Assembly: GCA_963750165.1 (NCBI GenBank)
Contig: CAVVPN010000003.1
Span: forward strand, 1,632,001-1,696,000
Reading direction: 5' to 3'
Origin: an uncultured Gemmataceae bacterium
GTDB taxonomy: Bacteria > Planctomycetota > Planctomycetia > Gemmatales > Gemmataceae
DNA: 64,000 bases
The notes under the pieces were generated by a model. That model did no database searches, was not told the DNA's origin, and worked only from the letters and a program-made list of their open reading frames with translations. The number at the start of each line of letters is the position of its first letter. The first letter of the stretch is position 1. Position numbers and translations under genes: made by a program. Of the stretch, positions 37,811 through 63,400 are shown piece by piece.

Positions 37811-38866
37811 ATGCGACCGCGCCAGGGTTTCACGCTGATCGAGCTACTGGTGGTCATCGCCATCATCGCCATCCTCATCGGCCTGCTCCTGCCGGCGGTG
37901 CAGAAGGTCCGGGAGGCGGCGGCCCGCGCCCAGTGCGAGAACAACCTCAAACAGCTCGGTCTGGCCATGCACAACTACGAGTCGGCCAACAAGAAGTTCC
38001 CGCCGTCATTCAAGGGCACCCTGGCGCCGATCAACGCCGCTTATGCGACCTATCCCGGCTACTTCTTCAGCTGGTCGGCCCTGGCGTTCCTCAACCCCTA
38101 CCTGGAACAGACCAACATCTACAACAACATGGACCTGACGCTGCCGATCTACACGCTGCCCAACTACACCATCTCGGCGGCCAATCAGTTCGCCGTCACG
38201 CAGGTGGTGCCGCTGTTCCTGTGCCCCAGCGATCAACAGCAGCCGGTCAGCAGTGCCTACGGCGTCACCAACATGGGCCCGACCAACTACGCGGTGTGCG
38301 TCGGCACCGGCACCACCAACGGCGGCGCCCCCTACGGCTCGCTGTACAACGCCGACGGCATGTTTCAGGCCCAGCAGTTCACCCGGGCGACGGACGTGCG
38401 CGACGGCCTGAGCAACACCGCCATGCTGTCCGAGAGCACCCTCGGCGAGGGCGACGAGAACACCATGGGCGCGGCCCCCAGCGGCGGCACGCTGCAAACC
38501 ACTTACCAGTATGTCGCGTTCGGCACGGCGCTGACGCCGGGCAGTTGCGCCGCGGCGACGAACTGGAACAACGCCAACCGCCGTGGTTTCATGTGGGCCT
38601 CCGGTGAGATGCGCTGTCGCCTCGTACAACCACTACCTGACGCCCAACGCACCGACGCCGGACTGCATCACCAACGACATCAACCCCGGCCCCGGGCAGT
38701 ACACGTCGATCGGCTTCCGCGGGCGCGCAGCCGGCACGCCGGCGGCGTCAACCTGGTGCTCGGCGACGGCTCGGTGCGCTTCGTGTCCAACGGCATCCAG
38801 GCCGCCACCTGGCAGGCGCTGGCCACCCGCGCCGGCGGCGACATCCTTACCAACCCGGACTTTTGA
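37811..38866 (+). CDS. DUF1559 prepilin-type protein (compensating frameshifts near 38615 and 38720)
   Basis: [26 protein letters not shown] in the alternate frame; [20 protein letters not shown]. Confidence 0.9.
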
Positions 38867-38896
38867 GCACGTGGCAAGTTTGAGGAGTCCGTCGCA

Positions 38897-40252
38897 ATGG
38901 CCGTCCTGACCGAGTCGCGTCCGCTGGTTGTCGCACTGCCCTGGCGCTGGGTGCATGTCGCCGTCGCGGCGCTGGCGATGGTGGCGACGCTGCCCGGCCG
39001 CACCCACGGCCTCGGCCTCATCACCGAACCGTTGCTGGCGGACTTCCAGCTGGGCCGCCTCGCTTACGCCGCCATCAACTTCTGGGCGACGCTCCTCGGC
39101 GCCGTCTTCTGCGTGCCCTGGGGCTGGCTGACCGACCGCCTCGGCGTCCGCGCCGTGCTCAGCGCCACGCTGCTCGGTCTTGGCGCCGTTGTCGTCGCCA
39201 TGAGTCTGCTGCCGGGCGCGGCGGAAACGACGGGGCCATCGGTGGCGGTGGCGTCGCTGCTGTTCGCGCTCGTACTGCTGACGCGCGGCCTGGGCCAGAG
39301 CGCCCTGTCGGTGGTCAGCCTGGCACTGATGGGCCGCGCCGCCGGCCGGCACTCCGGTCTGACCGTCGGCGTTTATTCGCTGCTGACCGGCCTGGGCTTC
39401 ATGGCCGCGTATGTGGCGATCCGCCAGGTGCTGTTAAATTGGGATGTCTCCTGGCGGTTACTCTGGGAGAGCATTGGCTGGGTGCTCATCGGCGTCGCCG
39501 TGCCGGTCTGGTTGGTGGTGCGGCCCACCGCCCTCGCGGTGTCGCCCACCGACCGGATCGCGGCCGACGCCGCCGGCTACACCCTCGGCGAAGCGCTGGC
39601 CACGCCCGCCTTCTGGGTCTTCGGCCTGGCCACGTCGTTTTACGGCCTGATCGCCGCAGGCATCTCGCTGTTCAACCAGAGCATCCTTGCGGAGCGCGGC
39701 TTCGACCGCGAACTGTTTCTGACCATCACCGCCCTGGCGCCGCTGGTCGGCCTGGCCAGCAACCTGGCGACCGGCGGCCTGGCGATGCGCTGGTCGTACG
39801 GCCGACTGCTGATGATCGCCATGCTGCTGCTCGCCCTGGCCCTGGCGGTCTTCCCGCTGGTGCAGACGGTGGCGCAGGTGTACGCTTACGCGGTGACGCT
39901 GGGCATCGCCGGCGGCATGGTGACGACCCTCTTCTTCGGCGTCTGGAGCCGCTACTACGGCCAGGCCCACCTCGGCAAGATCCAGGGCGCCGCCCAGATG
40001 TTGACCGTGTTCGCCTCGGCGCTCGGCCCGGTACTGCTGGCCGCCAGCCAGCACTGGACGGACTCGTACACGCCGTTGTTCCAGGGTGCCGCCGCGGTCG
40101 CCGGCTTGCTGGCGCTGGCCGCCTGGCTGACGCCGTCGCCCCGCGCCCCGATTTTCCTTCGCCTCACCCCCGACGAGGTTCCCCATGACGCCGGCCACCC
40201 TGACCCCCTTGCCACCGCCGTCCGCGGCGCGGAAGAGCGACTACGACCGTGA
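38897..40252 (+). CDS. MFS transporter
   Basis: About 12 TMs; GWLTDRLGVR motif A; YYGQAHLGKIQG. Confidence 0.9.
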   Translation: MAVLTESRPLVVALPWRWVHVAVAALAMVATLPGRTHGLGLITEPLLADFQLGRLAYAAINFWATLLGAVFCVPWGWLTDRLGVRAVLSATLLGLGAVVVAMSLLPGAAETTGPSVAVASLLFALVLLTRGLGQSALSVVSLALMGRAAGRHSGLTVGVYSLLTGLGFMAAYVAIRQVLLNWDVSWRLLWESIGWVLIGVAVPVWLVVRPTALAVSPTDRIAADAAGYTLGEALATPAFWVFGLATSFYGLIAAGISLFNQSILAERGFDRELFLTITALAPLVGLASNLATGGLAMRWSYGRLLMIAMLLLALALAVFPLVQTVAQVYAYAVTLGIAGGMVTTLFFGVWSRYYGQAHLGKIQGAAQMLTVFASALGPVLLAASQHWTDSYTPLFQGAAAVAGLLALAAWLTPSPRAPIFLRLTPDEVPHDAGHPDPLATAVRGAEERLRP

Positions 40253-40982
40253 CGGCTTCGTGATCGTCCGCGGTCTGTTCGGCGCTGACGACATCGCCGC
40301 GGCCCTGGCCGAGGCGGAGCGTCTGCTGGTCGAACGCCGCGATTTGATCTCGACCAAAAATATCCGCTGTCGCTGGCAGCCGAACGTCGTCACCGGCGCC
40401 GCCTGCGAGTTCGAGACCTTCGACCCCATCGTGGACCTCGTGCCAGTATGCCGGCGGCTGGCCCTGGACGCGCGGCTGCTGGCCGTGCTGGCGGAACTGT
40501 ACGGCGAGCCCGCGTGCCTGTTCAAGGACAAGCTCATTTACAAGCCGCCGGGCGTGAAGGGTTACGGTCTGCACCAGGACTGGATCGCCTGGCCGGGCTT
40601 TCCACGCAGCTTCCTGACGGTGCTCATGCCCTTCGACGCGGCCGGCGTGGACAACGGCTGCACGGAGGTGTTTCCCGGCTACCACACGCACGGCAGTCTG
40701 TCGGCCGAGGACGGCCAGTATCACGAGTTGCCGGCGGCCACCGTGGACGAGGCGAAGGGCGTGCCGCTGGAGCTGGAGCCAGGCGACGTGGCGATTTTCG
40801 GCGGCTTCACGCCGCACCGCTCCGCTCCGAATCGCTCGCCGCGCTGGCGACGGCAGCTGTATCTTAGCTATAACAAACTGTCGGACGGCGGCGAACAGCG
40901 GGCGAAGCACTATGATGAATTTCACCGCTGGCTGCGCGTGAAGTACGCGGAGTATAACAAGACCGACGTCTACTTCGAGTGA
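40185..40982 (+). CDS. Phytanoyl-CoA dioxygenase (PhyH) family Fe(II)/2OG dioxygenase
   Basis: YDRDGF, LHQD, NGC, PGDVAIF, TPHRSAPN..R. Confidence 0.9.
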   Translation: MTPATLTPLPPPSAARKSDYDRDGFVIVRGLFGADDIAAALAEAERLLVERRDLISTKNIRCRWQPNVVTGAACEFETFDPIVDLVPVCRRLALDARLLAVLAELYGEPACLFKDKLIYKPPGVKGYGLHQDWIAWPGFPRSFLTVLMPFDAAGVDNGCTEVFPGYHTHGSLSAEDGQYHELPAATVDEAKGVPLELEPGDVAIFGGFTPHRSAPNRSPRWRRQLYLSYNKLSDGGEQRAKHYDEFHRWLRVKYAEYNKTDVYFE

Positions 40983-41000
40983 CCACTGAGGAATTCTCCC

Positions 41001-41885
41001 ATGAACGTTGCCACGCTGCCCGTCGCACCGGCCGTCCGCTTTCACCTGTCGCTGAACGTCTCCGACCTGGCGCGGTCGATCCCATTTTACAGCACGCTGT
41101 TCGGCACCGAGCCGGCCAAGGTGCGGGCCGACTACGCCAAGTTCGAGTTGAACGACCCACCGCTGGTGCTGTCGCTGGAGCCGGCGGCCGCGGGCAAGGG
41201 CGGCTGGCTGAATCACCTCGGCTTTCGCATGCCGGACGCCGCCACGCTGGTCGCCATGCAGCGCCGCCTGGAAGAAGCGGGCATCCGCGCCCAGCGCGAG
41301 GAGGGCGTCGAGTGCTGCTACGCCCGGCAGACGAAGTTCTGGGTCACCGACCCGGACGGCGCGCTGTGGGAGATCTACACCTTTGACGGCGACATCGACC
41401 ACCGTGGCGTCGGCCAGGATCTGAAGACCGTGGCCGCCCCGGCTCCCGCCGCCAATGGCCACGCCGCGCCGGTCGCCGGCGCGTGCTCGTGGGAGCACCG
41501 CCTGGGCGAACCGGTGCCCGCCACCATCCCGCTGGCGGACAACAGCGCGGAAGAAGTGCGGTTGCGCGGCACCCTCAACCTGCCACTGGAAGAAGCGGTG
41601 AAGCGCCAGTTATTGCAGGAGGCGGCGCGCGTGCTGCGGCCGGGCGGCCGGGTGTTCGTGCATGTGCTGGTCGCGGATCGGCCGCTGGTCGCGGCGCCAC
41701 AATTGCCCGGCCCGGCGGCGGTGGTGCAGTACGTGCCGCTGGAGGCGGAGCCGATCAAACTGCTGGCGACCGCGGGGCTCAAGGAGATTCGCCTGCTGAA
41801 GTTTGGGGCCAGGCCCTGCTTCACACAGGACGGCGTGGAGATGCGCGAATTGCAGGTCGAGGGCTGGAAGCCCGCGGCAGGTTGA
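41001..41885 (+). CDS. ArsI/CadI-family VOC metalloenzyme fused to a methyltransferase-like domain
   Basis: RFHLSLNV, YAKF, LNHLG, ECCYARQTKFWVTDPDG..WE; C-terminal EAARVLRPGG. Confidence 0.85.
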   Translation: MNVATLPVAPAVRFHLSLNVSDLARSIPFYSTLFGTEPAKVRADYAKFELNDPPLVLSLEPAAAGKGGWLNHLGFRMPDAATLVAMQRRLEEAGIRAQREEGVECCYARQTKFWVTDPDGALWEIYTFDGDIDHRGVGQDLKTVAAPAPAANGHAAPVAGACSWEHRLGEPVPATIPLADNSAEEVRLRGTLNLPLEEAVKRQLLQEAARVLRPGGRVFVHVLVADRPLVAAPQLPGPAAVVQYVPLEAEPIKLLATAGLKEIRLLKFGARPCFTQDGVEMRELQVEGWKPAAG

Positions 41886-41992: not shown

Positions 41993-42409
41993 TTACTGCC
42001 GCGGTTGGCCGAAGCGCTTCGGCAGAACCACGCCCCACCCAGAACCGCCGCGGCGCAGCTGGACCGCCTCCTTGAAGCGGTGCTGTTTCTTCCGAACGGT
42101 GCCAATGAAGGTGACGTGCGCGATCGCCTCGGCCCCGTGTTCCTCGCAGGTTCGCAGTTTCACCTCCTGCGGTTCAAAGCCGAGCTGCCGGCGGTAGGTC
42201 TGGGCCAGCGCCTCGAAGCGTTCCGGCGGATACTTCGCCCGGCTGTCGAGGTGCAGCGCCGCGTGAGCGCGCCGCCAGTCCTTGTGCAGCAGTCCCTCGA
42301 AGAAGTCGCGCACTGCCTGTCGCGAGCCGGTGTCCGCGGGCTCCGCCGGCGCCTGGCCGCAGCCCGCCAGCAGGGCGAGCACCAGCAGACAGCAACCGCC
42401 GCGCCGCAT
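41993..42409 (-). CDS. Lipoprotein of unknown function
   Basis: LLVLALLAGC lipobox; downstream of the DUF1559 gene in the same orientation. Confidence 0.8.
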   Translation of the reverse strand: MRRGGCCLLVLALLAGCGQAPAEPADTGSRQAVRDFFEGLLHKDWRRAHAALHLDSRAKYPPERFEALAQTYRRQLGFEPQEVKLRTCEEHGAEAIAHVTFIGTVRKKQHRFKEAVQLRRGGSGWGVVLPKRFGQPRQ

Positions 42410-42431
42410 GTCCCCTCCCTCCGCGTCGGGC

Positions 42432-43199
42432 TCAGTACGGGTAGCTCATGTCCTGGGTGAAAACAACGTGATCGGGGAACAGGTCCGCCACGGCGTCATC
42501 CCACGCCAGGCTGACGACGTGGCCGTCCAGGTACAGGTAATTGGCGGCGCCGTTGTGCCGACGGTAGGCGATCCACGGCTGAAACGTGTTGGTGCCCAGC
42601 CAGATGTCGAAGTCGTCCTGTTTGGGGTCGCCGCCCGCCGCCAGGATGCCGTCCGCGTCGCGCTCCGTGTAGGCGATGAAGTTGGACGTGCCGACCTGCT
42701 GGATGAAGCGCAGCAGCGTCCAGCGCCCGTAGCGGCGCGTCTTGTGGCTCAGCTGCGAGTTCAGCAGGTAACTGGTGCGGTTCCAGACGCCGTCGCCGTC
42801 CGGCGCGGGGTAGCGCTGCGACGGGTCCGCCGGGCAGCGGTAGATGGTTTCGCTGGGCGTGATGATGCCCTGCTTGGACAGGGCCTCGTTGGCCTCGTTG
42901 TCGCCGCCGATGAAGGGCATGAGCTTGTCTTCCCAGTAAATCTCGGCGAAGCTGTTGGCATCCGCGGTGTTGGTGAGCACGTCTGCCTCGAAGGGGTGAT
43001 GCAGGAAGAATTGCCCGTTGGTGGCGTCGTAATACTCCAGGCTCGCCATGCCGATCTGGTGCAGGTTCGACTGACACTGCGTCCGCAGCGCGGCGGCCCC
43101 CGCCTGCTGCACCGCGGGCAGCAGCAGGCCGATCAGCACGCCGATGATGGCGATGACCACGAGCAGCTCGATCAGCGTGAACGCACGGCGGGTCGGCAT
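42432..43199 (-). CDS. DUF1559 prepilin-type protein, short form (NikR-associated)
   Basis: [43 protein letters not shown]. Confidence 0.92.
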
Positions 43200-43231
43200 G
43201 GCGGGTCTCCTTGAGGGCCGCGGTTCCTGGC

Positions 43232-43258
43232 GTATGACGAAATCCAAAATCGTAATAC
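43232..43258. promoter_or_regulatory. Candidate NikR operator
   Basis: GTATGACGAAATCCAAAATCGTAATAC, dyad GTATGACGA/TCGTAATAC, between divergent nikR and DUF1559. Confidence 0.8.
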
Positions 43259-43355
43259 TGAGGCCCAGGGTGGACGGCAAGGCACGGCCGGAAAGTTTCT
43301 GGTGGCGGCAGGGGCCGGGCGGTACAGTGGAGGGAAACCCGGGGAGGAGTTGATC

Positions 43356-43823
43356 GTGTCAGAACTGGTGCGGTTCACGGTATCGCTGGAGGCCGATCTC
43401 CTGGAGGAGTTCGACCGTTATTGCCTGGAAGGCAAGTTCCCGACGCGCAGCGAGGCGATCCGCCATGTGCTGCGCGAGACGTTGAACCAGCACGCCTGGC
43501 TGGCGGACGCTCAGGACGCGGCGGCGACGCTGACGCTGGTCTACGACCACCACCGCACCCGGTTGTCGGAGAAACTGCTGGATTTGCAGCACCGGCACGC
43601 GAACCTGGTGGTGTCCACGATGCACGTCCACCTGGACCACGACACCTGCCTGGAGGTGATCGTGCTGCGCGGCCGGGCCGTGGCGCTGCAGGAAATGGCG
43701 CTGGAACTGCGCGGCCTCAAGGGCATCCACAAGGGCCAGCTGGTGCTGGCGGCCGCATCGCCAGCGGAGGAATCAAACCACGGAACACACGGAACACACG
43801 GAAAAAAGACAGAAGAGAAATAA
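43356..43823 (+). CDS. nikR: Nickel-responsive regulator NikR
   Basis: RHH RFTVSL...[31 protein letters not shown]. Confidence 0.95.
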
Positions 43824-48400: not shown

Positions 48401-51400
48401 TCAACCGCCCAGCCCGATCACCCGCCGCTCGTCCCGTTCGTCGCGTGCCAGCGTCGCCAGGCCGGCGGCCAGCAGCGCGCCCGCCATCAGGTCGGCAACA
48501 GTCGCGTCCTCCTCGGTCAGCCAGTTTGCCAGGGCCTGTCCGTGCAGGTCGATGGCGGTTCGGGCGGCGGACGCTGGGGCCTCCTGGGGTGTCGGGATCA
48601 GTTCCGACGGCCCCAGGACACTCGGGGAGCCGTCCGCCGCACGGCCCACGGCCGGGACGAACCGCAGACGCGACGGCACGGGCTGGAGGGTGACCGCCGG
48701 GCCCGATTCCCACGGGAGAGCCGCCGCGGACTCGGAGCCGTTCGGCAACGGCACGCCGGCCAGCGCCGCCGGGGTGTAGGTGCCTTCCCACAACGCGGGC
48801 ATCGGAGCGGGGGGCGGCCCCAGCGGCGCCGGAGCGGACGCGGCCACGCTGTTGCCGTTCGACACCGCCGGCAGGGTGAACACCTGCGGGATGAACGCCT
48901 GCGGGATGGCCGTCTGTGGGGTAACCGTCTGCGGGGCGACCGTTGGCGGCGTGTCCACCGGGAGCGTGCCGCCGTCATCCGCCACCACGAATTCCAGCGT
49001 CATGGGATCCCAGCTGCCGCTGGACTCCGACGGTAGCGGCGCCGAGGACAGGCCGAAGACACTGCGCAGGTAGGCGTCCGAACTGTACGCCCCGCCACCC
49101 TCGCGCGGTAGCACCGCGGTGGAGAAGACGCCAGGGCCGTTGATCTGCGTGCCGAACCCGGCGGACCCCATCAGGTCCGTCGTGCCGTTCAACGCGGTCA
49201 CGTCCCACAGGCCGAAGGTGTGGCCGGCTTCGTGACTGATGGCATTGGCAATCTGCTGCGCATACTGGTCGGCGGTCTCGCCCAGGAAGCTTTCGGCCTG
49301 GCCGACCGCCGCCGCGAACACGAAGCCGATGTCCGTGTACTGGTTGCCCGGATCGACCGGCGCCCCGCCCGCGGTCAGGCTCACCGAGCCCGTGTTGAAG
49401 ACCGGGTTGGTGCCCACCAGCCAGGAACCATCGCCACCCACGTAAATCACCGTGTCGCCCGTGTGGAAGAGTGGGTCGTCCTGCCAATCGTCGTCGCGCA
49501 ACACCTGCACGGGGTACGCCGCAAACTCCGCCCGCACCTCGGTCACGATCTGCTCGATCTGCGTCTCGCGATCAACCCCGCCGAAGGCGACGTAGGCCGG
49601 GTGGGTCACCCCGGTCGCTGCCGGCACCTGCTCCACAGCCGCCGGCGCCGGCAGCGTGCCGCCGGCGAAGTCCAGGAAAATATGCGTCTGTGGCGGGGCG
49701 GGAGCAGGCGGCAGCACGCCCAGAACCTGGCTCTCGAACGTGTAGCGGACGTTGTTCGGGTTGTACAGCGAGAAGCTCCGGGCGGTGGTGGTCTCTCCCG
49801 GGTTCAGGATGCCATCGCCACCGGCCAGGGCGGTCAGGTCGAAGTACGGCGCGCCGCTCGGCAGGGTGCCGGTCGGCTGCAGGACGCTCACGGTTGAGGG
49901 TGACAGGTTGAGCCAGGACAGCCAGATCGGCCCCTGAATCGGCGTGGAGGTGTTGTTCGTCACCGTCCCGTAGAACGAAGTGTTGTGCGTGCTGCGGTTG
50001 TACTGCGTGCCGTAATAGGTGATGGTCAGCATGGACGTGACGTCCACCTGGCCGATGATGGGCAGGACATCAATGACGAAACTGCGCGTCAGCGACAGGC
50101 CGCCCTGGTCGGTGACGCGGACGTCGAGGACCAGCGTGGCCGCGTTCGCGTACAGCACCGACATGCCGAGGTTCAACTCCAGGACATTGTTCACGACCGT
50201 GAAGCGCGCGTCGTTGACCACCGAGTAAGTGAGGGTGTCGCCCACGTCCGGGTCGGTGCCCGTCAGGGTGCCGACCACAGCCCCGGCGTCCTGTTCGGGC
50301 ACGGTGTTATTGCTCAGGGTCAGGTCCGAGGGCGGGTGGTTGACGTGCAGGACCGTGATGGTGAAGTTGTCTGTCACGGATAGGGCGCCCTGGTCGGTGG
50401 CGGTGATGGCCAGCGGCACCGTCGGCTCGGTCTCGTGACTGAGGCTGACACCGCTGGCGAGTTCGAGGACGCTGCCGACCACCTGGAAGCGCGGATCGGA
50501 AACCGTGAAGGTGTGGGTGTCGCCCACGTCGGGGTCGGTCACGGTCAGGTTACCAATGACGGCGCCCGGCGCGTCCTCCAGCACCGTCGTGTTGTCCAGT
50601 GTCACATTCGTCGGCGCGTGGTTGACGTGCAGGACCGTGATGGTGAAGTTGTCTGTCACGGACAGGCCGCCCTGGTCGGTGGCGGTGATGGCCAGCGGCA
50701 CCGTTGGCTCGGTCTCGTGACTGAGGCTGACACCGCTGGCGAGTTCGAGAACGTTGCCGACCACCTGGAAGCGCGGGTCGGAAACCGTGAAGGTGTGGGT
50801 GTCGCCCACGTCGGGGTCAGTCACGGTCAGGTTGCCGATGACCGCGCCGGATGGTCCTCCAGCACCGTCGTGTTGTCCAGCGTCACATTCGTGGGCGCGT
50901 GGTTGATGTGCAGGACCGTGATGATGAAGTTGCGCGTCACGGACAGGCCGCCGGCGTCACTGGCGGTGATGGTCAGCGGCACCGTTGGCTCGGTCTCGTG
51001 ACTGAGGCTGACGCCGCTGGCCAACTCAAGGACGTTGCCGACCACCTGGAAGCGCGGATCGGAGACCGTGAAGGTTGGCGTGTAGCCCATGTCGGGGTTG
51101 ATGACGGTCAGGTTGCCGATGACGGCGCCCGGATGGTCCTCCAGCACCGTCGCGTTGTCCAGTGTCAGGTCGCTCTGTCCCAGACTGACCACGGTGATAG
51201 TCACCATGCCCGGCTGGCTGAGCAGCTGACCGTCGCTGGCCTGGTAGGTGAAGCTGTCCGTACCGCTGAAGCCCGGGTTGGGCGTGTACAGGAACGAGCC
51301 GTCGGCGTTCAGGGTGACGGTGCCGTGCGCCGGCTGAGTGGCGATCTGGGCGGTGAGGGGGTCGTCCTCGGTGTCGGTGTCGTTGGCCAGCACGCCGTTG

Positions 51401-54400
51401 GCGGCGCTCACCTGGAGCGGTTGGTCCTGGCCCGTCGTGTAGCTGTCGGGGTTGGCGAAGGGGGCGTGGTCACCGTCGGGGCCGAGCAGCTGGACGTTGG
51501 CAATGCTCACCGAACTGGCGACGGCGTCGAAGCCGAGCAGTTCCAGGTCCAGCGTCGCCTGGCTGCCGATGGCCAGGCCGGCCAGGCTCACGGTCACGAC
51601 CAGCGGCGTGCCCGGGGTGGCCGTCTGGCCGGAGGTGGCCAGGCCGTCCACGGTGACCTGTGGGCCGAAGAAGGTTTGGCCGGAGGTCTGCACGTTGAAG
51701 AAGGCGTCAGTCTGGGTCAGTCCGGTGGCGGCGCCGACCAGGGTCGTGTTGGTGGTCGGGTTGAGCAGCGCCGCCTCGAAGGCGTCGGGCGGAGCCAGCG
51801 GGCCGTTCGAGCTGAAGTTGGTGGTGACGGTGAAGCGCAGGGCGGTGGCGCCTTCGGGAACGCTGAACGTCTGGGTGAGGCTGGTGAAGACGTTCGGGTT
51901 TTCGCTGAGCACGGCCTGGGCGTTGCTGTTGACCGCGACCGTTCCCTGCGTGGTCCAGCCGAACTGCGAATCGGCGGGGTTGGCGTCGGAGAAATCGCCG
52001 TTGACCAGGTCGTCGCCGGACCAACCGCCTTGCCGCGCGGGTGCGGTGCCGATGCCGAGGAGGCTCGGGACCAGGTTGCTGGTGACGCTGGCGTCCTGGC
52101 GCACGGTGTTGAGGATCTGCACGTCCAGCGGCGAGGGTAAACGGCGGACGCCCGGCTCCAGGGTGAGGCTCATCAGGTCATCGGGATACAGGGACGGGTC
52201 GAGGTCGTCCGCCTGTGGGGCTGCCAGGTTGGCGGAGTAGCCCTTGCCGACGAACATCATGGAGCCGGCGACAATGCCGACGTGGGCGGCGTAGCCGGGA
52301 ATCTGCGGGTCGATGCCGAGCACGTGGCCGACCTCGTGCAGCAGGACGGTGTCCAGGTCGTACTTGCCCGCGGCGGGCGAGCCGGGGAGTGCCTGGAAGG
52401 CGTCGGGGCTGAGCTGCCGGCTAAACGCGGAGTTGTCCAGCGGCGTGGGATCGACGTACCAGCCAACGCCCGCGGCGTCCGGGCTCAGGGTGATGGTGGC
52501 GGCCGTGGGCAGGCCGTCCGGGCCGAGCCCGTCAATGCGAGTCTCGCCCAGTTCGCCTGCAGGCAGTTCCGCAAACGTAACGTTGAACTGAGCGTTGGCG
52601 AGGCCGCCGCTTGGTATGTTCCAGGCCGCCAGGGCTGCGTTCAGGCTGAACGTCTGGAGGCTGTCCAACGATGGATCTTCACCCTGCAAACCGATTGCTG
52701 TGCCCAATTGAGGCGCCGGAGGCGGGACAGGGTACGCGGTGATCAAATTCCCTCGGGCGTCGGTGTAAATCTGGATCCAACTGGTTTGCTGCCCGCCATG
52801 CTTCAAGGAAGTCAATCCGACAATTTGTTGGGTGTCCACGAGGCGGCTGTAAGACGGATTGAGTGCTCCTCCTCCCTGCTGGACCGCCCGCACAGGGGAC
52901 TGAACCACCCCTCTGCTGGTGAGAACTTGTTCGAGTTGACCGACCGAGATGGTGAAGGTCGAGTCATGTTGCGTCGGGGCGGGCCGGAAGTGATTCTGCA
53001 CAAGGTGCACCAGGCCAGCCGTGGTGGATCTGCCATTCCCCGCCCCCTTGGGCGAAAAGCGGGTGGCGAAGTTGGGGACGTTGATGCGGTTTCGTACCAC
53101 GCCAGGAATCGGGGGTTGACTTCCACTCCCGCTTCCCCCGCCGGGATTGCCACCACCGGTCGAGCCACCACCGCCGCTACCGCCTGTGCCTGGTGGACCC
53201 GATGTCGAGTTGCCGTTGGCGGCGTTGGCCCGGCGAGAGGCCGCAATCCCAGCGGCACCGAGCGGGGCAAACGTTTCAACCATGCCACCGATGCCGGCGA
53301 CGCCCATGCGAATTTGCGGATCATCCGTGAACAACCCGGAAACCTGATATCCGAGACTTGAGCCGATCGTTTTATTGACATCGACGGCCGCGTTCACTCC
53401 GTTCTCCAATTGCTGCTGCGCGTAATTCTCTTGCGTGGTGGTCTGGCCATTGCCGCCCATGACCTGAAGACTACCCTGGTTCTGCAGCGGCGTCATGTGA
53501 CAGTTGGGGTCATCGCGCTTACACGAGGTGACCACGTCAATACCGGCCTCAATCCGCCAGTATTGCGCCTGCTGTTCCTGGATTTTCCTCTGCTGGGCCG
53601 CGAGGGCGTCCTGGACCCTGGGGTCGTAGTACCAGAAGGAACTGCTGAAATCGACCTCCTTCAGCAGCTTTTGCAAGGTTTCAGGGGGCAGTTGTTTCAA
53701 CTGATTGACTGGGTCGAACGGCGAAGCGCTCGCGCCGACATCACTCACGGTAGCCCCCCACTCGCCGGGCCGGTAGGACTTGTCGTGCACGGTCAGGCCG
53801 TCGGTCCCGGTGTCCGTCTTCGACTCCTTGACGACGCCGCTCTTCCGCGGCGGTCCGTGGACAGTCACCTCCTCCGGCACATCGTCCGCCGGAGTGTTCG
53901 TGTTAGTGGCTGGCGGCGTTGCCGGGGTTCCCAGGATGCAGCCGCCGGGGCCGCAGATGGCACTCGACGGGGATACCGTCGGCAAGTTGGGCGGAGGCGG
54001 GGGCGGGGGGGGCGGCCCTTGCGCCGCGGGCGCCTGCTGCTCTCCCGTCGGGTCGGTGTAACTCAGCGGGTTCGCCGAGACGTACAGGTAGCGGTTGAGG
54101 GTGATCGGGGCAGTCTCCGCCCCGAGGAAATCGTCCTGGGTGATGAACGACCCGACGGACGGGTCGTAGTACCGCGCCCCGAAATAGTCCAGCCCCGTCC
54201 CCGGGTCGGCGCGTTGGCCGGTGAACTGCACTGGGTTGTTCGACGCGCCGTAGGACGCCAGCACGTTGCCCCAGGGGTCGTACTGGAAGCCCTGGATCAC
54301 GCCTGCGGGGCCGTACAACTCCGAGGTGCTGCCCAGCGCGTCCACGAAGTAAAACTGTTCGACGGGGACCGAGCCGCCGGAGAGCGGGCTCAGCATCGAC

Positions 54401-57400
54401 ACGAGTTGCACGCCGTAGTTGTACTGAATCTGTGTCTGGCCGCTGCCGCTGTATTCGAGCAGCAGGCCGGACGGCCCATACAGATAACGCGTCTCCCCCG
54501 TGGAGTCGATCAGTTTGACCCGCATCCCGGTGTAGTCGTAGTCGAACGTGACCGGGTTGCCGGAAGCGTCCGTGGTCTGCGTCAGCTCGTCCAGCACGTT
54601 GTAGGTGTACGCCGTGGTGCTCGTCGTGCTGACAACGGTCACGACCGGGTTGCCGTTGCCGTTAATCGTGGTGTTGACCTGGCCGACGATCTTGCCGGTG
54701 CGGTTGCCGTTGAGGTCGTACGTGTAGGCGATGCTCTGCGTGGGGGCCATGTAGTCGGTGACGCTCGCCAGTTCGTTGAGCCGGTCGTAGGCGTAGCTCA
54801 GGTCCACCGCCTGGGACGGGTTCGCCGGGTCGGTGCCCGTTTCGCTCTTGCGGTTGCCGTCGTTGTCATATGTGTAGTGCAGTGCCGCCCCGTTGGCATA
54901 AAAGACGTCGGTCAGCCGGTCGAGATGGTCGTAGGAGTATGACGTTGTCTGCGGCGCGCCGCCGTTCAGCCACTGGTGGGACTCGGTCTGCGACGTGCGG
55001 TCGCTGTCGGCGTCGTAGACGTAGGTGAAGCTAGAAATGACAACCGGGCTCGGGCTCGTGGTGTGATTGACCAGCTGGACCAACCGGCCCGCGGGGTCGT
55101 AGCCGCTGTCGGCGGCGGTCCCGTCCGGGTACGCCACCGTGGCGACCAGGCTGTCCTTGTAGTAGGTGTAGGTCGTCGTGCCGGCGCCCGTGTAGACGTG
55201 CCAGATGCGGTTACGGGCGTCGTAGTCGTAGGTGGTCGTGCCGGCGCCCGGGGGCGGTGTCATGGGCGGCAGCGGCTGGTTCGGGCCGGGGTCCTCCACG
55301 CTCTTGAGGTTGCCCTGCGCGTCGTAGGTGTACCTCACGTGGGTGTAGACGTCGTTGGGTCCCAGGTTGTCGTCCCGGGTCTGTTCGGTCACGCGGTCCA
55401 GGGCGTCGTAGACGTAGACGTGCTGCTCGTAGATCGGCGTGGCGGCGTTCCCGTCCGCCCCGGCCTTGGTTTCGTTGACCTGCACGATGTTGTCGTCCGC
55501 GTCGTACTGGTAGACGATGGCCGACGGTTGGAACGGGACGTTCGGGCTGGCGAATTGCGAGTACGCTACCGTCAACAGCCGGTCCCGGTAGTCGTACGTC
55601 ATCGCCGTGACCTGGTTCTTGGGGTCCGTCACCAGCGTCTGGTTGCCGTTGGCGTCGTAGCCGTAATGCCAGTGAATCGCCACGCTCGTCGGGGGGGTGC
55701 CGGGGTACGGCGCGTACGGCGCGGGCCGCGCCGGCGTGGGGCTCAGGGTGCCGGGGGTCAGGTACTGCAAGGTATCCGTGAGCCGGTTCAGCGCGTCGTA
55801 GTAGAACGTGACCAGGTTGCCGTTGGCGTCCTGCTGGGCGATCTTGTTGCGGTTGCCGTCGTAGCGGTAGTAGGTGATGCCTCCGCCGCTCTGCGTCTCG
55901 TTCACGGACAGGAGCGAGCCCAGTTCGTCGTAGGTGTAGGAGGTCGTGTACCCCCGGGGGTCCTTCATGCTGAGGACGTCGTTGTTGGCGTCGTAGGTGT
56001 AAAAGGTCGTGTTGCCCGCGCCGTCGGTCTCGGTCATCATCCGGTGCAGCACGTCGTAGGTGTAGTAGGCGTCGAAATACCCGGCCCGGGGCGGGTTGCT
56101 GGCGTCGGTCGGGAACGACTGCGACGGCCCGGCGTGGGCGCGCGGGCCCTGCACCGACACCAGGTCGCCGACTGAGTCGTACGTGTAGGTGGTCGTGCCG
56201 GCCACGCTGGGGTCGTTGGCCCCCTCCGTCATGCTGATCTTGCGGTTCGCCCCGTCGTAGGCGTAGGTCGTCTCGTTATTGTCGGCGTCGAAGGACGCGG
56301 TCACGTTGTCGTCGCCGTCGTACTGCATCCGCTCCAGCGTCACCGTGCTGGTGCCGTAGCCGGACGACAGTTCGCTGTTCTGCACGCTCAGCGAAATCTC
56401 CCGGCCCAGCGAGTCGTTCTGGTGGATGGTGAGGATCGGCGCGCCGTTCACGATCCGCGGCCCCACGTCAATCACCTGGTTCTGGGCGTCGTGGTACTCC
56501 TCCAGGGTCGTGGTGATTGCGCCGCCGGTGGTGCCGTCCTCGTCAGTTTCGATCAGGCGGTTGTCGGCGTCGTACTGGTACAGGGTCACGTTGTGGTTCG
56601 CGTCGGTCTGGCTGCGCAGGTTGACGCCGTCGTAGACGGAAACGATGGTGGGGTGCACGAACGTCGTCGCTTGCGTGCCGGGGTCGGTAACGGGGACGCC
56701 GGGTTCCGTCACCAGCACCGGCCGGCCCACCGCGTCGAACTGCGTGACCGTGGCGTTGCCGTCGGCGTCCGTCGTGGTGACCTGGTTGGCGGGGTCGTTG
56801 TAGCTGGTGGCCGACAGCGTGAGCTGCTGGCCGCCGTTGCTGAACTGCTCGTACAGCGTCTGGTTGAGCACACGGTTCAGGTTGTCGTAGGTGGTCGTGG
56901 TAACGGTACCGCGCTTGTCCACTTGTTTGACCACGTCGTCGTTGCCGTTGTAGAAGACCGCCTCCGCCGGATTCAATTCGTCCTTGGACGTGAGCATCCG
57001 GCCCAGGCCGTCGTAGGTGTTGACGACGAAGGTGCCGGACGGGTCCGTGATCTTGACGGCGTCACCGTCCTGGTCGTACTGGGTGGTGGTGGTGAGGCCC
57101 AGGCCGCCGACGTCCACGGTGGCGCTGTGGACGCGGTCCAGGCCGTCCAGCACCGTCTCGGTCTTGCCCGAGACGTGCTCGGGGTCGGCCGAGTTGCCGC
57201 GCGGGTCGGTCACGATGACGGTGTTCTGGGCGTCGAGGCTGTAGTCGTAGGTCGTCACGTAGGTCACTTGCTGGGCGCCGCCGGTCGGGTCGCCGAGGTA
57301 CACGGTCTCATCCACTTCCCCGGGTCGATCCAGACCGTCGATCTTGGCCGACGGGGTGGTGATCGTGAGAGTGGTCACCTTGGCGCCGGTCGGGTTCGAC

Positions 57401-60400
57401 TCGTCCAGGGGGCTCTTGTGCGTCTCCAGGATGACGTTGCCGTTGGGGTCGTACTGGTAATCGACCTCGTTGCCCACCGGGTCGGTCTGGGTCAGCAGTC
57501 GGTTGGCGGCGTCGTAGGTGTACTTCGTGACGTGGTCGTCGGCGTCGCTCTGGCTGAGCGTGTTGCCGACCCGGTCGTAGGTCGTCAACTGGTCCGGCGG
57601 CACGGTGACGTACGAGCCGGACAGCGGCAGGTGCACGTCCGTCACGCGGAACAACCAGTCGTACTTGTACGTCGTGGTGTTGCTGTGCAGGTCGGTCTCG
57701 TACTGCTTGTTGCCGACCAGGTCGTAGTGGGCCTGCATGGTCGGTTCGTTGGTCGGGATCGACGGGCCGCCCACGATCACGGTTTCGATCAATCGGTTCA
57801 GGTCGTCGTAGGTGAATTGCTGGTGGATCGGCGCGCTGCCCGGGCCGTCGCGCAGGTCGTACTGGTCGGTGACGTTGTCGTCCTCGTCGTACCTGTACGT
57901 GGTGGAGATGGTGGTGGTCGAATTGTCCGCCTGGAGCACGCCCGGCTCGGTCTGCGTGATCAGGCGGTTGGCGGCGTCGTAGGCGTAATCGGTGACCTGG
58001 CCCATGCCGTTGATCGTCGCGCTGACCTGGCCGCCGGGCAGGTAGAAGGTGATCGTCTCCTCCGCCCACGCCCGGCCGGCGTCCGGGCCGGTCAGCGGGT
58101 GCAGCCCGTCCTGCGGCAGCACGAAGTTGTAAGCCTGGGCGTTCTGGTCGTCGAAATGGACCTCGCGCACCTCGCGGTCCAGGCCGTCGTACGCGTAATC
58201 GACGTGGTGGCCGAATGTGTCCTTCGTCGAGGTGAGCCGGCTGCGGGCGTCGAACGTCTGCGTCGTGGTGATCCCCTGGCTGCCCGAGGTCTGGGCGAAG
58301 GTCTGGGTGGCGTTGCCGTAGGCGTCGTACTGGTACGTGGTCACGAAGCCCTTGGGGTCGGTCTCCTGCGTCAGGTCGCCGGGGCCGACGCCGTTGGCGT
58401 AGGTCGTGCCGGTGTAATATGCGTACTTCGTCACGTCGCCGACGGCGTCGATGGTGGCCAGCAGGTTGCCGTTCAGGTGACCGGGGGTGGGCACGGAGGC
58501 GCCGCCCTGCAACGCCGGCAGCGCTGGCGGCGGGCCGCCCGTGCCGTCGGTCAGGCCGAACGCGGTGTCGTCGTAGACGTAGAAGGTGGTGTGGCCTTCG
58601 CCGTCGGTCGCGCTGGTCTTCTGGCTGAACAGCGGGTCGTAGGTGTAGGAGGTGGTCACGCTGCTCACCTGCCCCCCGGCGGCGGTGTAGACCGGGTCGT
58701 AGATCGACCCGGTGGGGGCGTGGATCGTCTGCGAAATCACGTTGCCGAGCACGTCGTACTTGTAATCGGTCTCCCGGAGTGTCGGGTCCGTCATGGACAC
58801 CAGTTCCACGTCGAGCTTGCCGTCCGCGCGGACGGGCACGGCGGCGGCGTTGGGCTGGTCCATGTTCCAGACCATGGTCGTCTTGGCGGCGCCCGCGTTG
58901 CCGTCCCCGTCCGGGGCGTCGATCTCAATGGCGGCCCCGTAGCTGTCGAGCACGTAGGTGGTCGCCGGGATGCCGGGTCGCGGGTCGGTCACCATGCGTG
59001 TGTTGGCCGTGCTCGATTGCACGCTGAAGTTGTAGCTGAACTGCGTCACGGAAATCCCGGAGCCGCCGGTGGCCGTGGAGGCACCGCCTGGCTCGTCCAC
59101 TTCCTTGACGACCTCGTAGAACGGCACGCCGAAGAAGGGGTTCAGGTTACTGTCCACGTACGAGGCGAACTGGTGGCCGTCGATCAGCGGGTTGCCGCTG
59201 CTGGTGCCGTCGAGGTGGTCGCTCACCTGGAAGTAGGTGTAGGTGGTCGTGTGGTCCTTGTAGTCCGGCGCCAGGCTGCCGTCCGCGTTGAAGCCGTTCG
59301 GCTCGATGTAACTGGTCAGGTTGTGGCCGGTGGGGCCGTTGCCGGGCGTGTAGGTGTAGGCCTGTTTCTGCAGGATCGGGCCGCCCTTGCCGTCCCGGCG
59401 CACCACGCTGGTGAGGTTGCCGGCCACCTCCGGCGGCGGGTCGGTCGGCGCCGCCCCGGGCGGCGGCTCGTCGTAGTTGTACTGAATGTCCAGGCCGCCC
59501 AGGGTGCCGTCGTCGGACGGGTCGGGGTCGTACCCCGTGATCTCCGTGATGCGGTAGGCGTTGTAAATGTACTGGTAGCTGAACAGGAGCGCCCGGCCCG
59601 ACGAGTCCGTCACCGCCTTCACCAGGGTGAGGTCCTGGTTGGCGGCGAAGGCGTCCTGGAAGGGCTGCGCCAGACTGCTGGCGCCGAGGTCGTCCTTGCT
59701 GTAGTACAGGGTGATCTTGTTGCCGTTGGCGTCCTCGATGTAGGCGAGCTGGTACACGGTGGTGCCGTCGTTGACGTCGGCCGGCAGCTGGAGCGGGCGC
59801 AGCACGAAGTGGTAGCGGACGTCCGCCGTGGTGAAGAAGTCGAAACTCGCCTGCCCCGCGACCACGTCCCGGGCCAGTGAGGAGTGGTAGCCGACCTGCG
59901 GGTAGAAGAACTGGGCGCCGGCCGGCAGTCCGTACTGCTGGGCGCGGGCGGCGTTCACGGCGGTCAGCACCGGGTCCAGGGCGCCGACGGTCGTGAAGGT
60001 GTTGCCGCTGCCGTCGCCGCCGACGATGGTGTACTTGCCGCTGCCGTTGTCCACCAGGGTAACGTTGTAGTTGTCGGTCCAGCCGGCACCGAGCGGCCCG
60101 GGGCTGGTGTCGCCAGAACTGGAGTAGCTGCGCGTGAAGGTCAGGTCCAGGCCGCGGCCGGGGACGGTGACGTCCGTGCTGGACATGGTCAGATGGCCGT
60201 CCCAGATGTCCACGCCCTTGACGATGGTGTGCGCGATGGGGTAGGACTGGTCCTCCTCCACGTCATGGTCAAGCTCGGCGGTCTGCGTGGCCGCGGCGTT
60301 GGTGTCGGTGACCGCGGTGACGGTGAGCGTGTAACTGCCTGGCTGGGACACGGCCGGGACGTTGGACAGGTCCGTGGTGTAGATGCCCGGGTCCAGCTGG

Positions 60401-63400
60401 ACATTCTGGAACGTGCCGAAGGGCAGCGAATACGTCTTGCCGGTCACCACGTTGTAGACCTCATCGTCGGGCAGGTCGGTCGCCGGTTGGCCGTCGATCA
60501 GCAGGGTGACCTTGGCCGTGTGATCGACCGAGAACGAAAAGGCCCCGCCCGTGGTGGTAACGGTGCCATTGACCGCATCCACCCGGGTAGTGATGGTCAC
60601 CTTGGTCAGCTTCTTGATGTTCACGCCGGGGTCGATGACCGGGCCGCCCACGGCCTCGGCCGCCAGTTCGGGTTCTTCAGCCGGGGCCGCCTGGATGGCC
60701 GCGGTGGGCTGCAAAATGTAAACGTGTGGCACCAGGCCGTGCATGACGGCGATGCCGCCCGGTCGGCCGCCGGTGGCGATGGGGGCGCGGGACTGGTCGT
60801 AGACGCTGAACGCGAGGGTGTTTGGGTCAGCAATCGGCGCGCCGTAATTGTCCGGGTTGGAGGACGAGAAGGAGTAGTTGGCCCGGTAGTCGGCCTGCAC
60901 GTCGATGGCGGCGTTGGGATTGCGCTGGCCCATCGTGTTGTTGGGGCTGATGGTGCCCATGTCGTCCAGCGGCAGGTCGTCGATCGGCAGCAGGGTCATG
61001 AAGCCGTAGACGAGGCCCTCCGCCTGTTCCGCGGCCTGCTGCTGCGCGATCAGCGTGAGCATCGCCTGGACGTCGAAGACGAAGACGCCGCCCTCCTGCG
61101 GCGTCGGGGTGGTGCCGGGGAGAGCCCCAAAAGCGGTGCCCAGGACGGGGACCGTCTGGTAGCTGACGTAGAGGTAATTGCCGTCGGCCGACAGGGTCAG
61201 GTCCGTGGGGTAGCCGTAGGGGATCGGCCGTGTCGCCGCGATCAGTTTCGGACTGCCGTGCAGGCCGAGCGGGTCCTGGATGATGCCGACGTTGCCGTCC
61301 TCGAACAGCGGGTTGGAGGTCTGGTCGAGGTAGCCGCTGATGCCGCCCGAGACCAGGTTGCCGAAGTCATCGGTGCCGCCGCCGAAGGTGGTCGGCACCA
61401 CGTCGGCGCGGCCGGCGATGAAGGCGTAGGAGTCGTCGGCCGTGAAGACGATGCCGCTGGCGTTGTGCACCTGCAGCCGGTCGTCCTGCGATACGCCGTT
61501 GACGTAATTCAGGTTCAGGGAAATCGGCGTCTTCGTGTTGTTGTTCGGGTTATCGACCTCGACGCCGTAGCTGTCCGTCTGGGCGTTGGTGAAGGCGACG
61601 ACGTCCTGGGGCGGCGTGCCCGACTGGTTCTGCTGGGCCTGCTGGTCCGGCGGCGTCGGCGCCACGGCCACGCCGTAGGTCTGCATGCTGCCGGGGACCG
61701 CCTCGATCTGGGACACCTGTGGCGGCGTGCCCTTGGGCTGGGTCGGGTCGTTCTTCAAAACGATCTCGACCAGGTTGCCGTTGATCAGGTCGAAGTTGCG
61801 GCCGGAGTTGGGGTCGCCGTTCTCGTTCGGGGCCGTGACGTAGAGGTGCAGGTCGTCGGAGCCGATGACCACCTTCCGCAACCCGGTGGGCGCGAGCAGC
61901 GCGTCCGGGCTGAAAGTCCCGTCCGCGTTCTCGATGCCGGCGCTGGCGAGTGCCGCGTCGGGGTTCACCTGCCGCACGATCTGGATGGTGTTGACGACCT
62001 GGTTGTACGTCGGCGAGGCTGGGTCGATGTCGATGACGTAGACGTTGGACGCCAGGTCGCCGGCGTCGAAGCCCTGGCCAGTCGTGGAGTGCTGGCCGCC
62101 GGCGATGACCGGCCGCGAGTCGGCGACGTAGGCGTACTTCCCGGCAGAGTCGATGGCGATGCCGTAAGGCTCGGCGCCGATGGGCAGGTCGATCTCCTTG
62201 CTGCTCGGGTTGGCGTTGATGCCGATGCCCACCTCGTCGATGACGGTGCCGTTGCCATCCGGCGCGTCCGGCGCGAGAGCCGCAGCCGGTAGAACCCGTT
62301 TTTCAGGTCGGCGTAGGCGGTCGGGTCGAAGCTGTCCAGGACGACCGTGTCCGCCGTGCCGGTGCCGGACGCCAGGTGCTGGACGAGGCTCCACGTTGGC
62401 GTCCAGGCCCCCAGGTCCAGCGTCCAGTCGCCGTCCGTGACGATACCGCGGATGTCGAACGGGCCGGTGATCGTCTTGAGACGCAGGGCGGGGTCCAGGC
62501 CGCCGCCGTTGCCCGACACCGGCACGGGCGTCGTCTCATCCTGGGCCGGTGGCGGACTGTTGCCGTTGACGTTGATCTCCTGCAGCGACAGGGTGTCCAC
62601 GACCGCCACCTGGCCGGAGCCGCGCAGGGTGACATAGGCGCGCGTGTTGTCCGGGGTGACGGCCACGTCGCGCGGCAGTGGGAAATCGGAAGGATCGCCC
62701 AGCGGGATCTGGGCGATTTCCTTGTTGAAGGAATCGGGAGTGTCGTTGGTGCCGTCGTGGGTGGAGTCGCCATCGATCACGGCCAGGGCGCCGTCGATGC
62801 CGGTGACCTGGTTGCCGGTGTAGTCATACTGCAGTTCCGGCAGGGCGACGAAGACATACTGTCCGCTCGGGTTGAGCTTGACGGCGTTGCCGGTGATCGG
62901 CGCCGGCTGACCCATGGTGGGAGCGTTGCCCTGGCCGTAGGGCGGCGACACGTTGGCCGTGTCGGTGCGCGTGACGCTGATCTCGGCCGTCCCGACAGCC
63001 AGGGTTGTGGGCGCCGGCACGTGGATGTCCATGGCCCCGGGCGCGACGGCGTCGTTGGGGCCGGGGGCGGTGAGGGTGAGGCCCTGGAGGACGCCCTCGG
63101 TGACGGTCAGGCCGTTCGCCGCGGTGAAGGTGACGGACAGGTTGTTCGGGTTGTCGCCCGTGCCGGTGGCGGTCACGACCACATCCGGTTGGAGACCGTT
63201 CGAGGTCGTGGACGGCTCGAAGTTGATCTGGGCCTCGACGATCTGCGGCCCCGGAGCCTGTGCGGCCACCTGGGTCGGGTCGAGGGTGATGGAAAACTTC
63301 GTGACCTGGTTCGCGTTGATCTGGACGTTGTTGACGGTCACGTCGGGCAGGCCGAACTTCGGGATGCGCTCGACCACGACGGGCACCGGGTCGCCGCCGT

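Follow-up and report, generated by a model that had tools for sequence, protein, structure and literature searches.

Can a predicted operator of the nickel regulator NikR tell us what a member of the DUF1559 family of prepilin-like proteins does? The question is raised by a locus in a 64,000-nt window (the whole stretch of DNA that was analysed) of the genome of an uncultured Gemmataceae bacterium, where a DUF1559 gene and a lipoprotein gene are divergent from an intact nikR gene (Table 1). The initial annotation had placed a NikR-type palindrome upstream of the DUF1559 gene, and this palindrome is present as it had been written. The DUF1559 ATG (43199, minus strand) lies 32 nt away from it, and the nikR GTG (43356, plus strand) 97 nt away.

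Table 1. Features of the locus (positions in the window) and copies of the RNA leader found in relatives (positions in the loci named, among others; strand given where marked).
Feature	Position	Strand	Notes
Predicted NikR operator, 27-bp palindrome	43232..43258	.	7-bp arms, 13-nt spacer
TTGCCG, -35-like hexamer for the DUF1559 gene	43275..43280	-	read from the sequence
DUF1559 (SBP_bac_10) / H-X9-DG prepilin-like protein, 255 aa	42432..43199	-	single-copy "FFLHH" subfamily
HHPFEAD motif, residues 67-73 of the DUF1559 protein	42981..43001	-	H67/H68 invariant, 60/60 homologues
Lipoprotein gene, 138 aa, lipobox LAGC	41993..42409	-	22 nt past the DUF1559 stop
nikR, 155 aa	43356..43823	+	RHH domain and His3Cys residues
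RNA leader copy	L009:2482-2566	-	
RNA leader copy	L016:5659-5742		
RNA leader copy	L049:5865-5953		
RNA leader copy	L088:5853-5940		
RNA leader copy	L257:1479-1559		
RNA leader copy	L289:2584-2664	-	
RNA leader copy	L290:1407-1477		

Read with 6-bp arms, the palindrome has a 15-nt spacer and one mismatch, and with one mismatch its arms can be read out to 9 bp. Just one 15-nt-spacer site with at most one mismatch exists in the whole 9.6 Mb genome, the one at 43232-43258, but this count is weak alone because other spacers of 11 to 21 nt give 0-5 genome matches each at the same tolerance; it is conservation upstream of orthologues that raises the palindrome above chance. The site fits the published operator format: in the available text of PMC545781, NikR boxes are inverted repeats 27-28 bp long, their 7-bp arms separated by 13 or 14 nt. 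The initial annotation had seen in the N15 spacing a deviation from the N16 of E. coli and had proposed a check for an indel in an A-run of the spacer. Both points can be dropped: 27 bp is a normal box length (PMC545781), it is almost the only length at which orthologues match, and its agreement with published NikR boxes means that no indel is needed. A strict promoter scan detected no site here; TTG[AC][CA] is found 18-22 nt before the box in 40/86 box-bearing loci, and the hexamer TTGCCG would put the -10 element of the DUF1559 promoter on the operator's far arm. From its sequence and conservation, the palindrome very probably serves NikR as the operator of the DUF1559-lipoprotein unit, and we would expect with high confidence that NikR binds and represses this unit.

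The regulator itself is readily assigned. The product of nikR has an RHH domain (PF01402) and a NikR_C domain (PF08753) and scores 154.2 bits against the NCBIfam equivalog NF003381, for which the cut-off is 105. Its residues H79, H90, H92, and C98, which we take to be the nickel ligands, align with the same residues in the NikR proteins of Pyrococcus and Helicobacter, and nickel-dependent DNA binding is its predicted function. Such His3Cys residues are described as the NikR nickel ligands in the available text of PMC11672702.

We assessed the conservation of the box with a search motif derived from the window's own site alone. From 169 ortholog loci fetched, 140 were used, these being distinct, at least 45% identical, and with 150 nt of upstream sequence present. 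The box precedes 69/140 orthologues at two or fewer mismatches and 87/140 at three or fewer, compared with 0/1400 and 20/1400, respectively, in a shuffled control, and other spacers gave matches at 0-3/140 orthologues at two or fewer mismatches. A further 53/140 loci have no box within 200 nt and retain the FFLHH motif, F[FL]LHH being present in 140/140 loci. Among the prepilin-type genes of this genome, 1/48 has the box, namely the FFLHH DUF1559 gene. Conservation of the whole nikR-operator-DUF1559 arrangement, which had been proposed as a check, holds for the box but not for the adjacency of the regulator, as nikR lies within 1.6 kb of the FFLHH gene in 8 of the 127 loci with enough flanking sequence. 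Cultured carriers of the FFLHH gene include Singulisphaera acidiphila, in which it is boxed, and Limnoglobus roseus, in which it is not.

The box and nikR also occur in the same genomes. A search for NikR_C was run on 60 genomes, comprising 50 of the 78 genome loci, hand-picked to take in box-less loci and boxed loci without an adjacent nikR, and 10 relatives; many of these are incomplete MAGs, and kin among them are not independent. With the strict motif, nikR was found in 26/27 box-positive genomes versus 7/33 box-negative genomes. With a weight matrix trained on the ortholog loci, and with boxes farther upstream (at 272 nt and at an operon head) also counted, these values became 30/31 versus 3/29. 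Phylogenetically independent pairs number 3-4 concordant and none opposite, which is not significant (p 0.125-0.25). In 9/38 genomes carrying the FFLHH gene there was no nikR match.

The same matrix leads to known nickel genes. In this genome (G000) it finds a boxed operon of nikK (DUF4198, which we take to be equivalent to NikK), nikM (CbiM), and a third gene without assignment, spanning C11:134607-137125 with its box at C11:137098; cbiQ lies apart at C11:1865991. By eye, a gene adjoining this operon resembles a REP-associated tyrosine transposase. The initial annotation had pointed to the lack of a nickel importer nearby, and indeed none lies in the locus, but the boxed nikK-nikM operon and cbiQ are present elsewhere. 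Because the genome thus encodes a NikM-type importer, the DUF1559-lipoprotein pair is no stand-in for an inner-membrane importer. Searches of the DUF1559 protein and the lipoprotein against Pfam and NCBIfam at E<=0.001 returned no match to the NikA, NiCoT, HupE/UreJ, NikM, or TonB receptor families.

When 43 genomes were scanned with a pattern, 30 matches were obtained versus 9 for a reversed control, and the 3 that fell in the 10 nikR-less genomes were all low-scoring. Of the 30, 12 precede a DUF1559 gene as the first or second gene (calls read from the N-terminal sequence, three of which Pfam confirmed): four belong to the FFLHH subfamily and eight to other subfamilies, with DUF4198 following in three of those eight. 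Other matches precede a nikK...cbiQ-ATPase operon, an ABC-TPR-DUF4198 operon, and an [FeFe]-hydrogenase (L250:4978-6920, in genome G127), a NikR box before an [FeFe]-hydrogenase also having been predicted for Desulfovibrio in the available text of PMC545781; the remainder are inside genes, low-scoring, or unexplained. The initial suggestion of pilin-like, ligand-specific uptake adaptors gains from the boxes before several other DUF1559 subfamilies, three with DUF4198 next. The FFLHH gene itself stands directly before a CbiM/NikM gene in three loci (L037, L038, and L169), and in L063 it lies opposite a boxed DUF1559...nikM-nikR cluster; a CbiM/NikM neighbour was seen in just 4/159 loci. In genome G202 (L244:3624-10570), one box precedes an ABC-2/DUF3526-TPR-DUF4198-ATPase operon, possibly a further nickel-uptake system, and a second precedes a DUF1559 gene. 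In genome G301 (L243:6900-7070 and L226), a DUF1559 gene and a deoxyhypusine-synthase-family gene, the latter from another subfamily, diverge, and two boxes lie between them.

Nickel demand in this genome is indicated by an [NiFe]-hydrogenase with hypD, four LarA-family matches, and LarC; urease and HupE/UreJ were not found in it, and its NicO match is weak (36 bits). The [NiFe]-hydrogenase cluster with its hyp genes (C3:3055009-3071220) contains no NikR box, the best score there being 2.1. A hydrogenase link for the FFLHH gene is weak, hypD occurring in 21/38 carriers versus 86/213 non-carriers. LarC was present in 45/46 genomes searched and CbiM in 5/5 box-less genomes tested, so box-less genomes still need nickel. 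The genome, which is 93% complete, also has six secretin matches and gave no match to a TonB-dependent receptor.

The 255-aa DUF1559 protein scores above the cut-offs for N_methyl (PF07963, 31 bits versus 21.2) and the H-X9-DG motif (TIGR04294, 21.7 bits versus 19) and marginally so for SBP_bac_10 (PF07596, 23.4 bits versus 23.3), and a class III signal was detected in it. The HHPFEAD motif reported earlier is at residues 67-73. Fifteen positions are invariant in 60 aligned sequences, namely H67, H68, E86, Y88, W89, E90, D91, and H152, followed by D195, D196, D198, W200, W209, H215, and H227. The FFLHH subfamily is short, single-copy, and tightly conserved (52-80% identity), with one match each in 11/61 relatives at E<=1e-30 and presence in 38/251 genomes of the class, and 300 further genomes, drawn from a phylum-wide sample, gave no match to the head domain at E<=1e-12. 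In the predicted structure (pLDDT 84), a long helix at the N terminus (residues 9-59) is followed by a pilin-like head, in which large inserts hold conserved His and acidic residues. In a structural comparison the top 22 rows were all pilins, the best Z being a weak 5.2 with an rmsd of 3.8 over 121 of 255 residues; Foldseek returned nothing at E<=0.001, and the ESM Atlas gave only clusters of unnamed pilin-like proteins. As such, a type IV pilin-like fold is predicted for this protein on the basis of the model. Confidence in the model is lowest at the His-His loop (residues 67-85, pLDDT <50), and for that reason no metal site is seen.

The lipoprotein is modelled with greater confidence (pLDDT 89.6) and has an NTF2/SnoaL-like fold: the model retrieved ketosteroid-isomerase-like chains with Foldseek (E 1.9e-4), and its Pfam SnoaL_2 score was below the cut-off (19.4 versus 27). 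Its lipobox residues G16-C17 are present in at least 90% of 38 homologues. The lipoprotein occurs in exactly the same 11/61 genomes as the FFLHH gene, adjoining it. Across the wider set, its gene follows the FFLHH gene in 63/136 loci, with 0/11 Isosphaeraceae, 0/8 Pirellulales, and 0/14 Planctomycetaceae loci having it there, and among the loci examined it was detected only in Gemmatales. It is a Gemmatales add-on and no universal part of the system.

The direct observations, i.e., the box, its conservation, its link to nikR, the boxed importer operon, and the pilin-like fold of the model, can be joined in one scheme. Nickel-loaded NikR would bind the 27-bp box over the promoter and repress the two-gene unit. 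When nickel is scarce, the pilin-like protein and the lipoprotein would be made and would catch nickel, probably complexed, outside the inner membrane, and the caught nickel would then be handed to NikK-NikM, the importer whose genes lie in another part of the genome. We narrowly favour this full scheme, in which a NikR-repressed pair catches nickel or a nickel complex under shortage and feeds NikK-NikM, and the broader statement that the unit has some role in nickel acquisition appears likely on balance. That the protein works with a secretin-type machine, as a pilin or pseudopilin specific for a ligand, we put forward tentatively, as plausible rather than probable. Where the initial annotation had proposed a nickel-acquisition module, predicted NikR control is very likely, but nickel as the substrate is something we infer rather than establish.

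A second regulatory element in relatives bears on the question of substrate. In 13/165 ortholog loci searched, a structured RNA leader of about 80 nt occupies the position of the box, and 0/10 scored leader-bearing loci have a box; the leader also precedes the FFLHH gene in genome G614. Promoter-like words lie on its 5' side, and it consists of a long unbranched stem with a conserved internal loop, an invariant core, and a U-tract end; its base is terminator-like, and there is one copy per genome (Table 1). An alignment of 17 rows has 91.4% of cells paired, with 10/27 pairs changing on both sides versus at most 4 in slid controls, counts that kin sequences inflate. At Rfam gathering thresholds there were 0 matches for the leader in 10 + 6 loci, and an open search gave a best E of 0.16. 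The contexts seen were the FFLHH DUF1559 gene or speY and no other, the leader preceding SpeY (NF002699, 593 bits versus a cut-off of 500) in 8 genomes, made up of 5/9 SpeY loci tested and three more genomes. SpeY is the agmatine-coupling enzyme of homospermidine synthesis according to the available text of PMC13625781. The leader is absent from the 64,000-nt window and from the region upstream of this genome's SpeY. Loci L009 and L016 have a small ORF (about 33 codons), hydrophobic at one end, between the leader and the DUF1559 gene, and the orthologues of L046 and L087, from records titled Bacteroidales and Acidobacteriaceae, are Planctomycete-like and possibly come from misbinned contigs.

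The leader could be taken for a nickel switch that replaces NikR. This idea is weakened by genomes G003, G165, and G216, which have nikR as well as the leader, the leader standing before SpeY; in G003 the NikR box is found at the DUF1559 pair. With nikR present in three leader-SpeY genomes, the leader is not simply a NikR substitute. Conversely, SpeY under NikR control is ruled against by its upstream regions, 0/9 of which have a NikR box (best score 12.5). From its structure and contexts, we regard the leader as a candidate off-switch of the polyamine pathway, i.e., a riboswitch candidate for homospermidine synthesis, although it may be bound by a protein rather than a small ligand. With the spermidine riboswitch, a SAM-I variant (available text of PMC10853860), it shares a terminator-like architecture before a polyamine biosynthesis gene; it differs in being a single stem without branches, about 80 nt long, that has a conserved internal loop and matches no Rfam family. 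No description of it was found in the literature searched, which was largely without subscription journals or supplements.

Because the leader also precedes SpeY, the ligand of the FFLHH protein could be a nickel complex or a polyamine, and the earlier statement that the operator gives a DUF1559 member a specific substrate goes too far, given that FFLHH orthologues also sit behind a leader otherwise found before a polyamine synthase. One rival explanation is that the ligand of the protein is a polyamine or guanidino-polyamine, namely homospermidine or its bis-guanidino precursor, either unbound or complexed with nickel, with NikR control where the compound serves nickel capture and a polyamine-responsive leader in other lineages. 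Besides the shared leader, a close SpeY match is missing from 6/6 tested genomes in which the leader precedes DUF1559, and ten of the invariant residues (Y88, W89, E86, E90, D91, D195, D196, D198, W200, and W209) are acidic or aromatic. Acidic and aromatic residues are the chemistry of polyamine-binding proteins. Nevertheless, 5/5 tested genomes of this kind have another DS-family gene, the SpeY upstream regions are free of NikR boxes, and the box-less genomes need nickel too, and we consider a polyamine ligand unlikely. A bolder extension would unite both regulators: DUF1559 proteins would be interchangeable, ligand-specific pilin tips for TonB-independent import through secretins, the ligand being readable from the regulator, and FFLHH would bind a nickel-polyamine complex. 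Such a ligand, a new kind of nickelophore, would explain why FFLHH is behind NikR in most genomes and, in others, behind the leader, which would then be a riboswitch of a new class for the homospermidine pathway; we offer this as a long shot.

Two other readings leave the capture of a ligand aside. The unit may be repressed by NikR and still be no capture device, the protein being a pilin of the surface or periplasm that serves some other purpose in nickel shortage, such as adhesion, envelope remodelling, or a nickel-sparing substitution. The NikR box upstream of the nickel-independent [FeFe]-hydrogenase is a case of the latter, no transporter stands beside the gene at most loci, and DUF1559 is a very large family with no known function in the available text of PMC8567305 and PMC10632474. 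Against this reading stand the boxed DUF1559 genes that lead DUF4198 (NikK-like) genes in three genomes and the three loci in which the FFLHH gene is directly 5' of CbiM/NikM, and we judge it rather unlikely. Alternatively, the palindrome may be no NikR operator for this unit, serving instead nikR autoregulation or another binder or being a REP-like remnant. It does sit between two divergent genes, and the matrix also picks up REP-like repeats in this genome: of 16 REP-like palindromes of about 61 bp found, 7 have a NikR-box-like centre (C4:1157922, 1168959, 1184710, and 1190727; C11:1082466; C12:315493; C3:2668812). Likewise, two of six examined matches to an 8-bp-arm pattern elsewhere in the genome are inside such palindromes, and none of the six precedes a nickel gene. 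The box at 43232-43258, however, has no REP arms, and its position and 27-bp length are kept across Gemmataceae, Isosphaeraceae, and Pirellulales loci; moreover, boxes track the presence of nikR and mark known nickel genes. A site that only autoregulates nikR, which the initial annotation had named as a refuting case, is excluded: a box lies within 1.5 kb at 1/30 nikR loci, that locus faces a DUF1559 pair, and the box therefore serves the pilin gene. Overall, a misread palindrome is very improbable. The genes around the REP-like palindromes are small and variable, and at C11:706819 a half-element stands before an integrase-like gene.

Set against described nickel systems, neither the regulator nor the box is new in kind, and the target is outside the known nickel-transport families. 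The delta-proteobacterial nik(MN)QO and nikKL regulons (available text of PMC545781) have in common with this locus a 27-28-bp repeat with 7-bp arms and repression of nickel import; they also include a nickel-independent hydrogenase and, like NikKLMQO, a tested nickel importer of Synechocystis (available text of PMC5904137), have extra periplasmic parts such as NikK. In contrast to these, a prepilin-type DUF1559 protein and an NTF2-like lipoprotein here form a boxed unit of their own, and neither is in a known nickel-transport family. With E. coli NikR and nikABCDE (available text of PMC11672702), the shared elements are the His3Cys NikR and a similar operator arm sequence, whereas here the locus has no NikA-type binding protein, the box is 27 bp, and nikR in these genomes is usually unlinked from its target and unboxed.

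Other Planctomycetes DUF1559/SBP_bac_10 proteins share the N_methyl and H-X9-DG motifs and a lipoprotein neighbour, and they occur as dozens of paralogues per genome in the available texts of PMC8567305, which gives at least 41 prepilin-motif genes per Planctomycetes genome, and PMC10632474, which gives 68 DUF1559 paralogues in Planctopirus, two of them essential. The FFLHH subfamily differs in being short and single-copy and in having a motif of its own and a regulator that can be identified. Type IV pilins and T2SS pseudopilins (PilA4 6xxd, PilV, ComP, and EpsG) have the N-terminal helix and pilin-like head in common with it; in contrast, the present protein aligns over less than half its length and has large inserts, and any assembly of it into a filament is putative. 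We found no link between DUF1559 and nickel or NikR in the literature searched, which was largely without subscription journals, supplements, and RegPrecise.

DUF1559 is among the largest paralogue families of Planctomycetes, and its function becomes directly testable with a member that is single-copy, has a named regulator and invariant candidate ligand residues, and occurs in cultured bacteria. The RNA leader can be tested separately as a candidate riboswitch of the homospermidine pathway. If the capture role is true, bacterial nickel uptake would gain a pilin-based step, and this may account for outer-membrane uptake of scarce solutes in bacteria with few or no TonB receptors.

Two other gene groups in the window were also seen. 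At 37811-41885, a second, ordinary DUF1559 gene heads genes for an MFS transporter, a PhyH dioxygenase, and a VOC enzyme of the ArsI/CadI family whose tail is weakly methyltransferase-like, and this group converges on the lipoprotein gene. At 50827-62394, inspection by eye shows a giant RHS/YD-repeat-type protein of 3855 aa with a variable internal segment.
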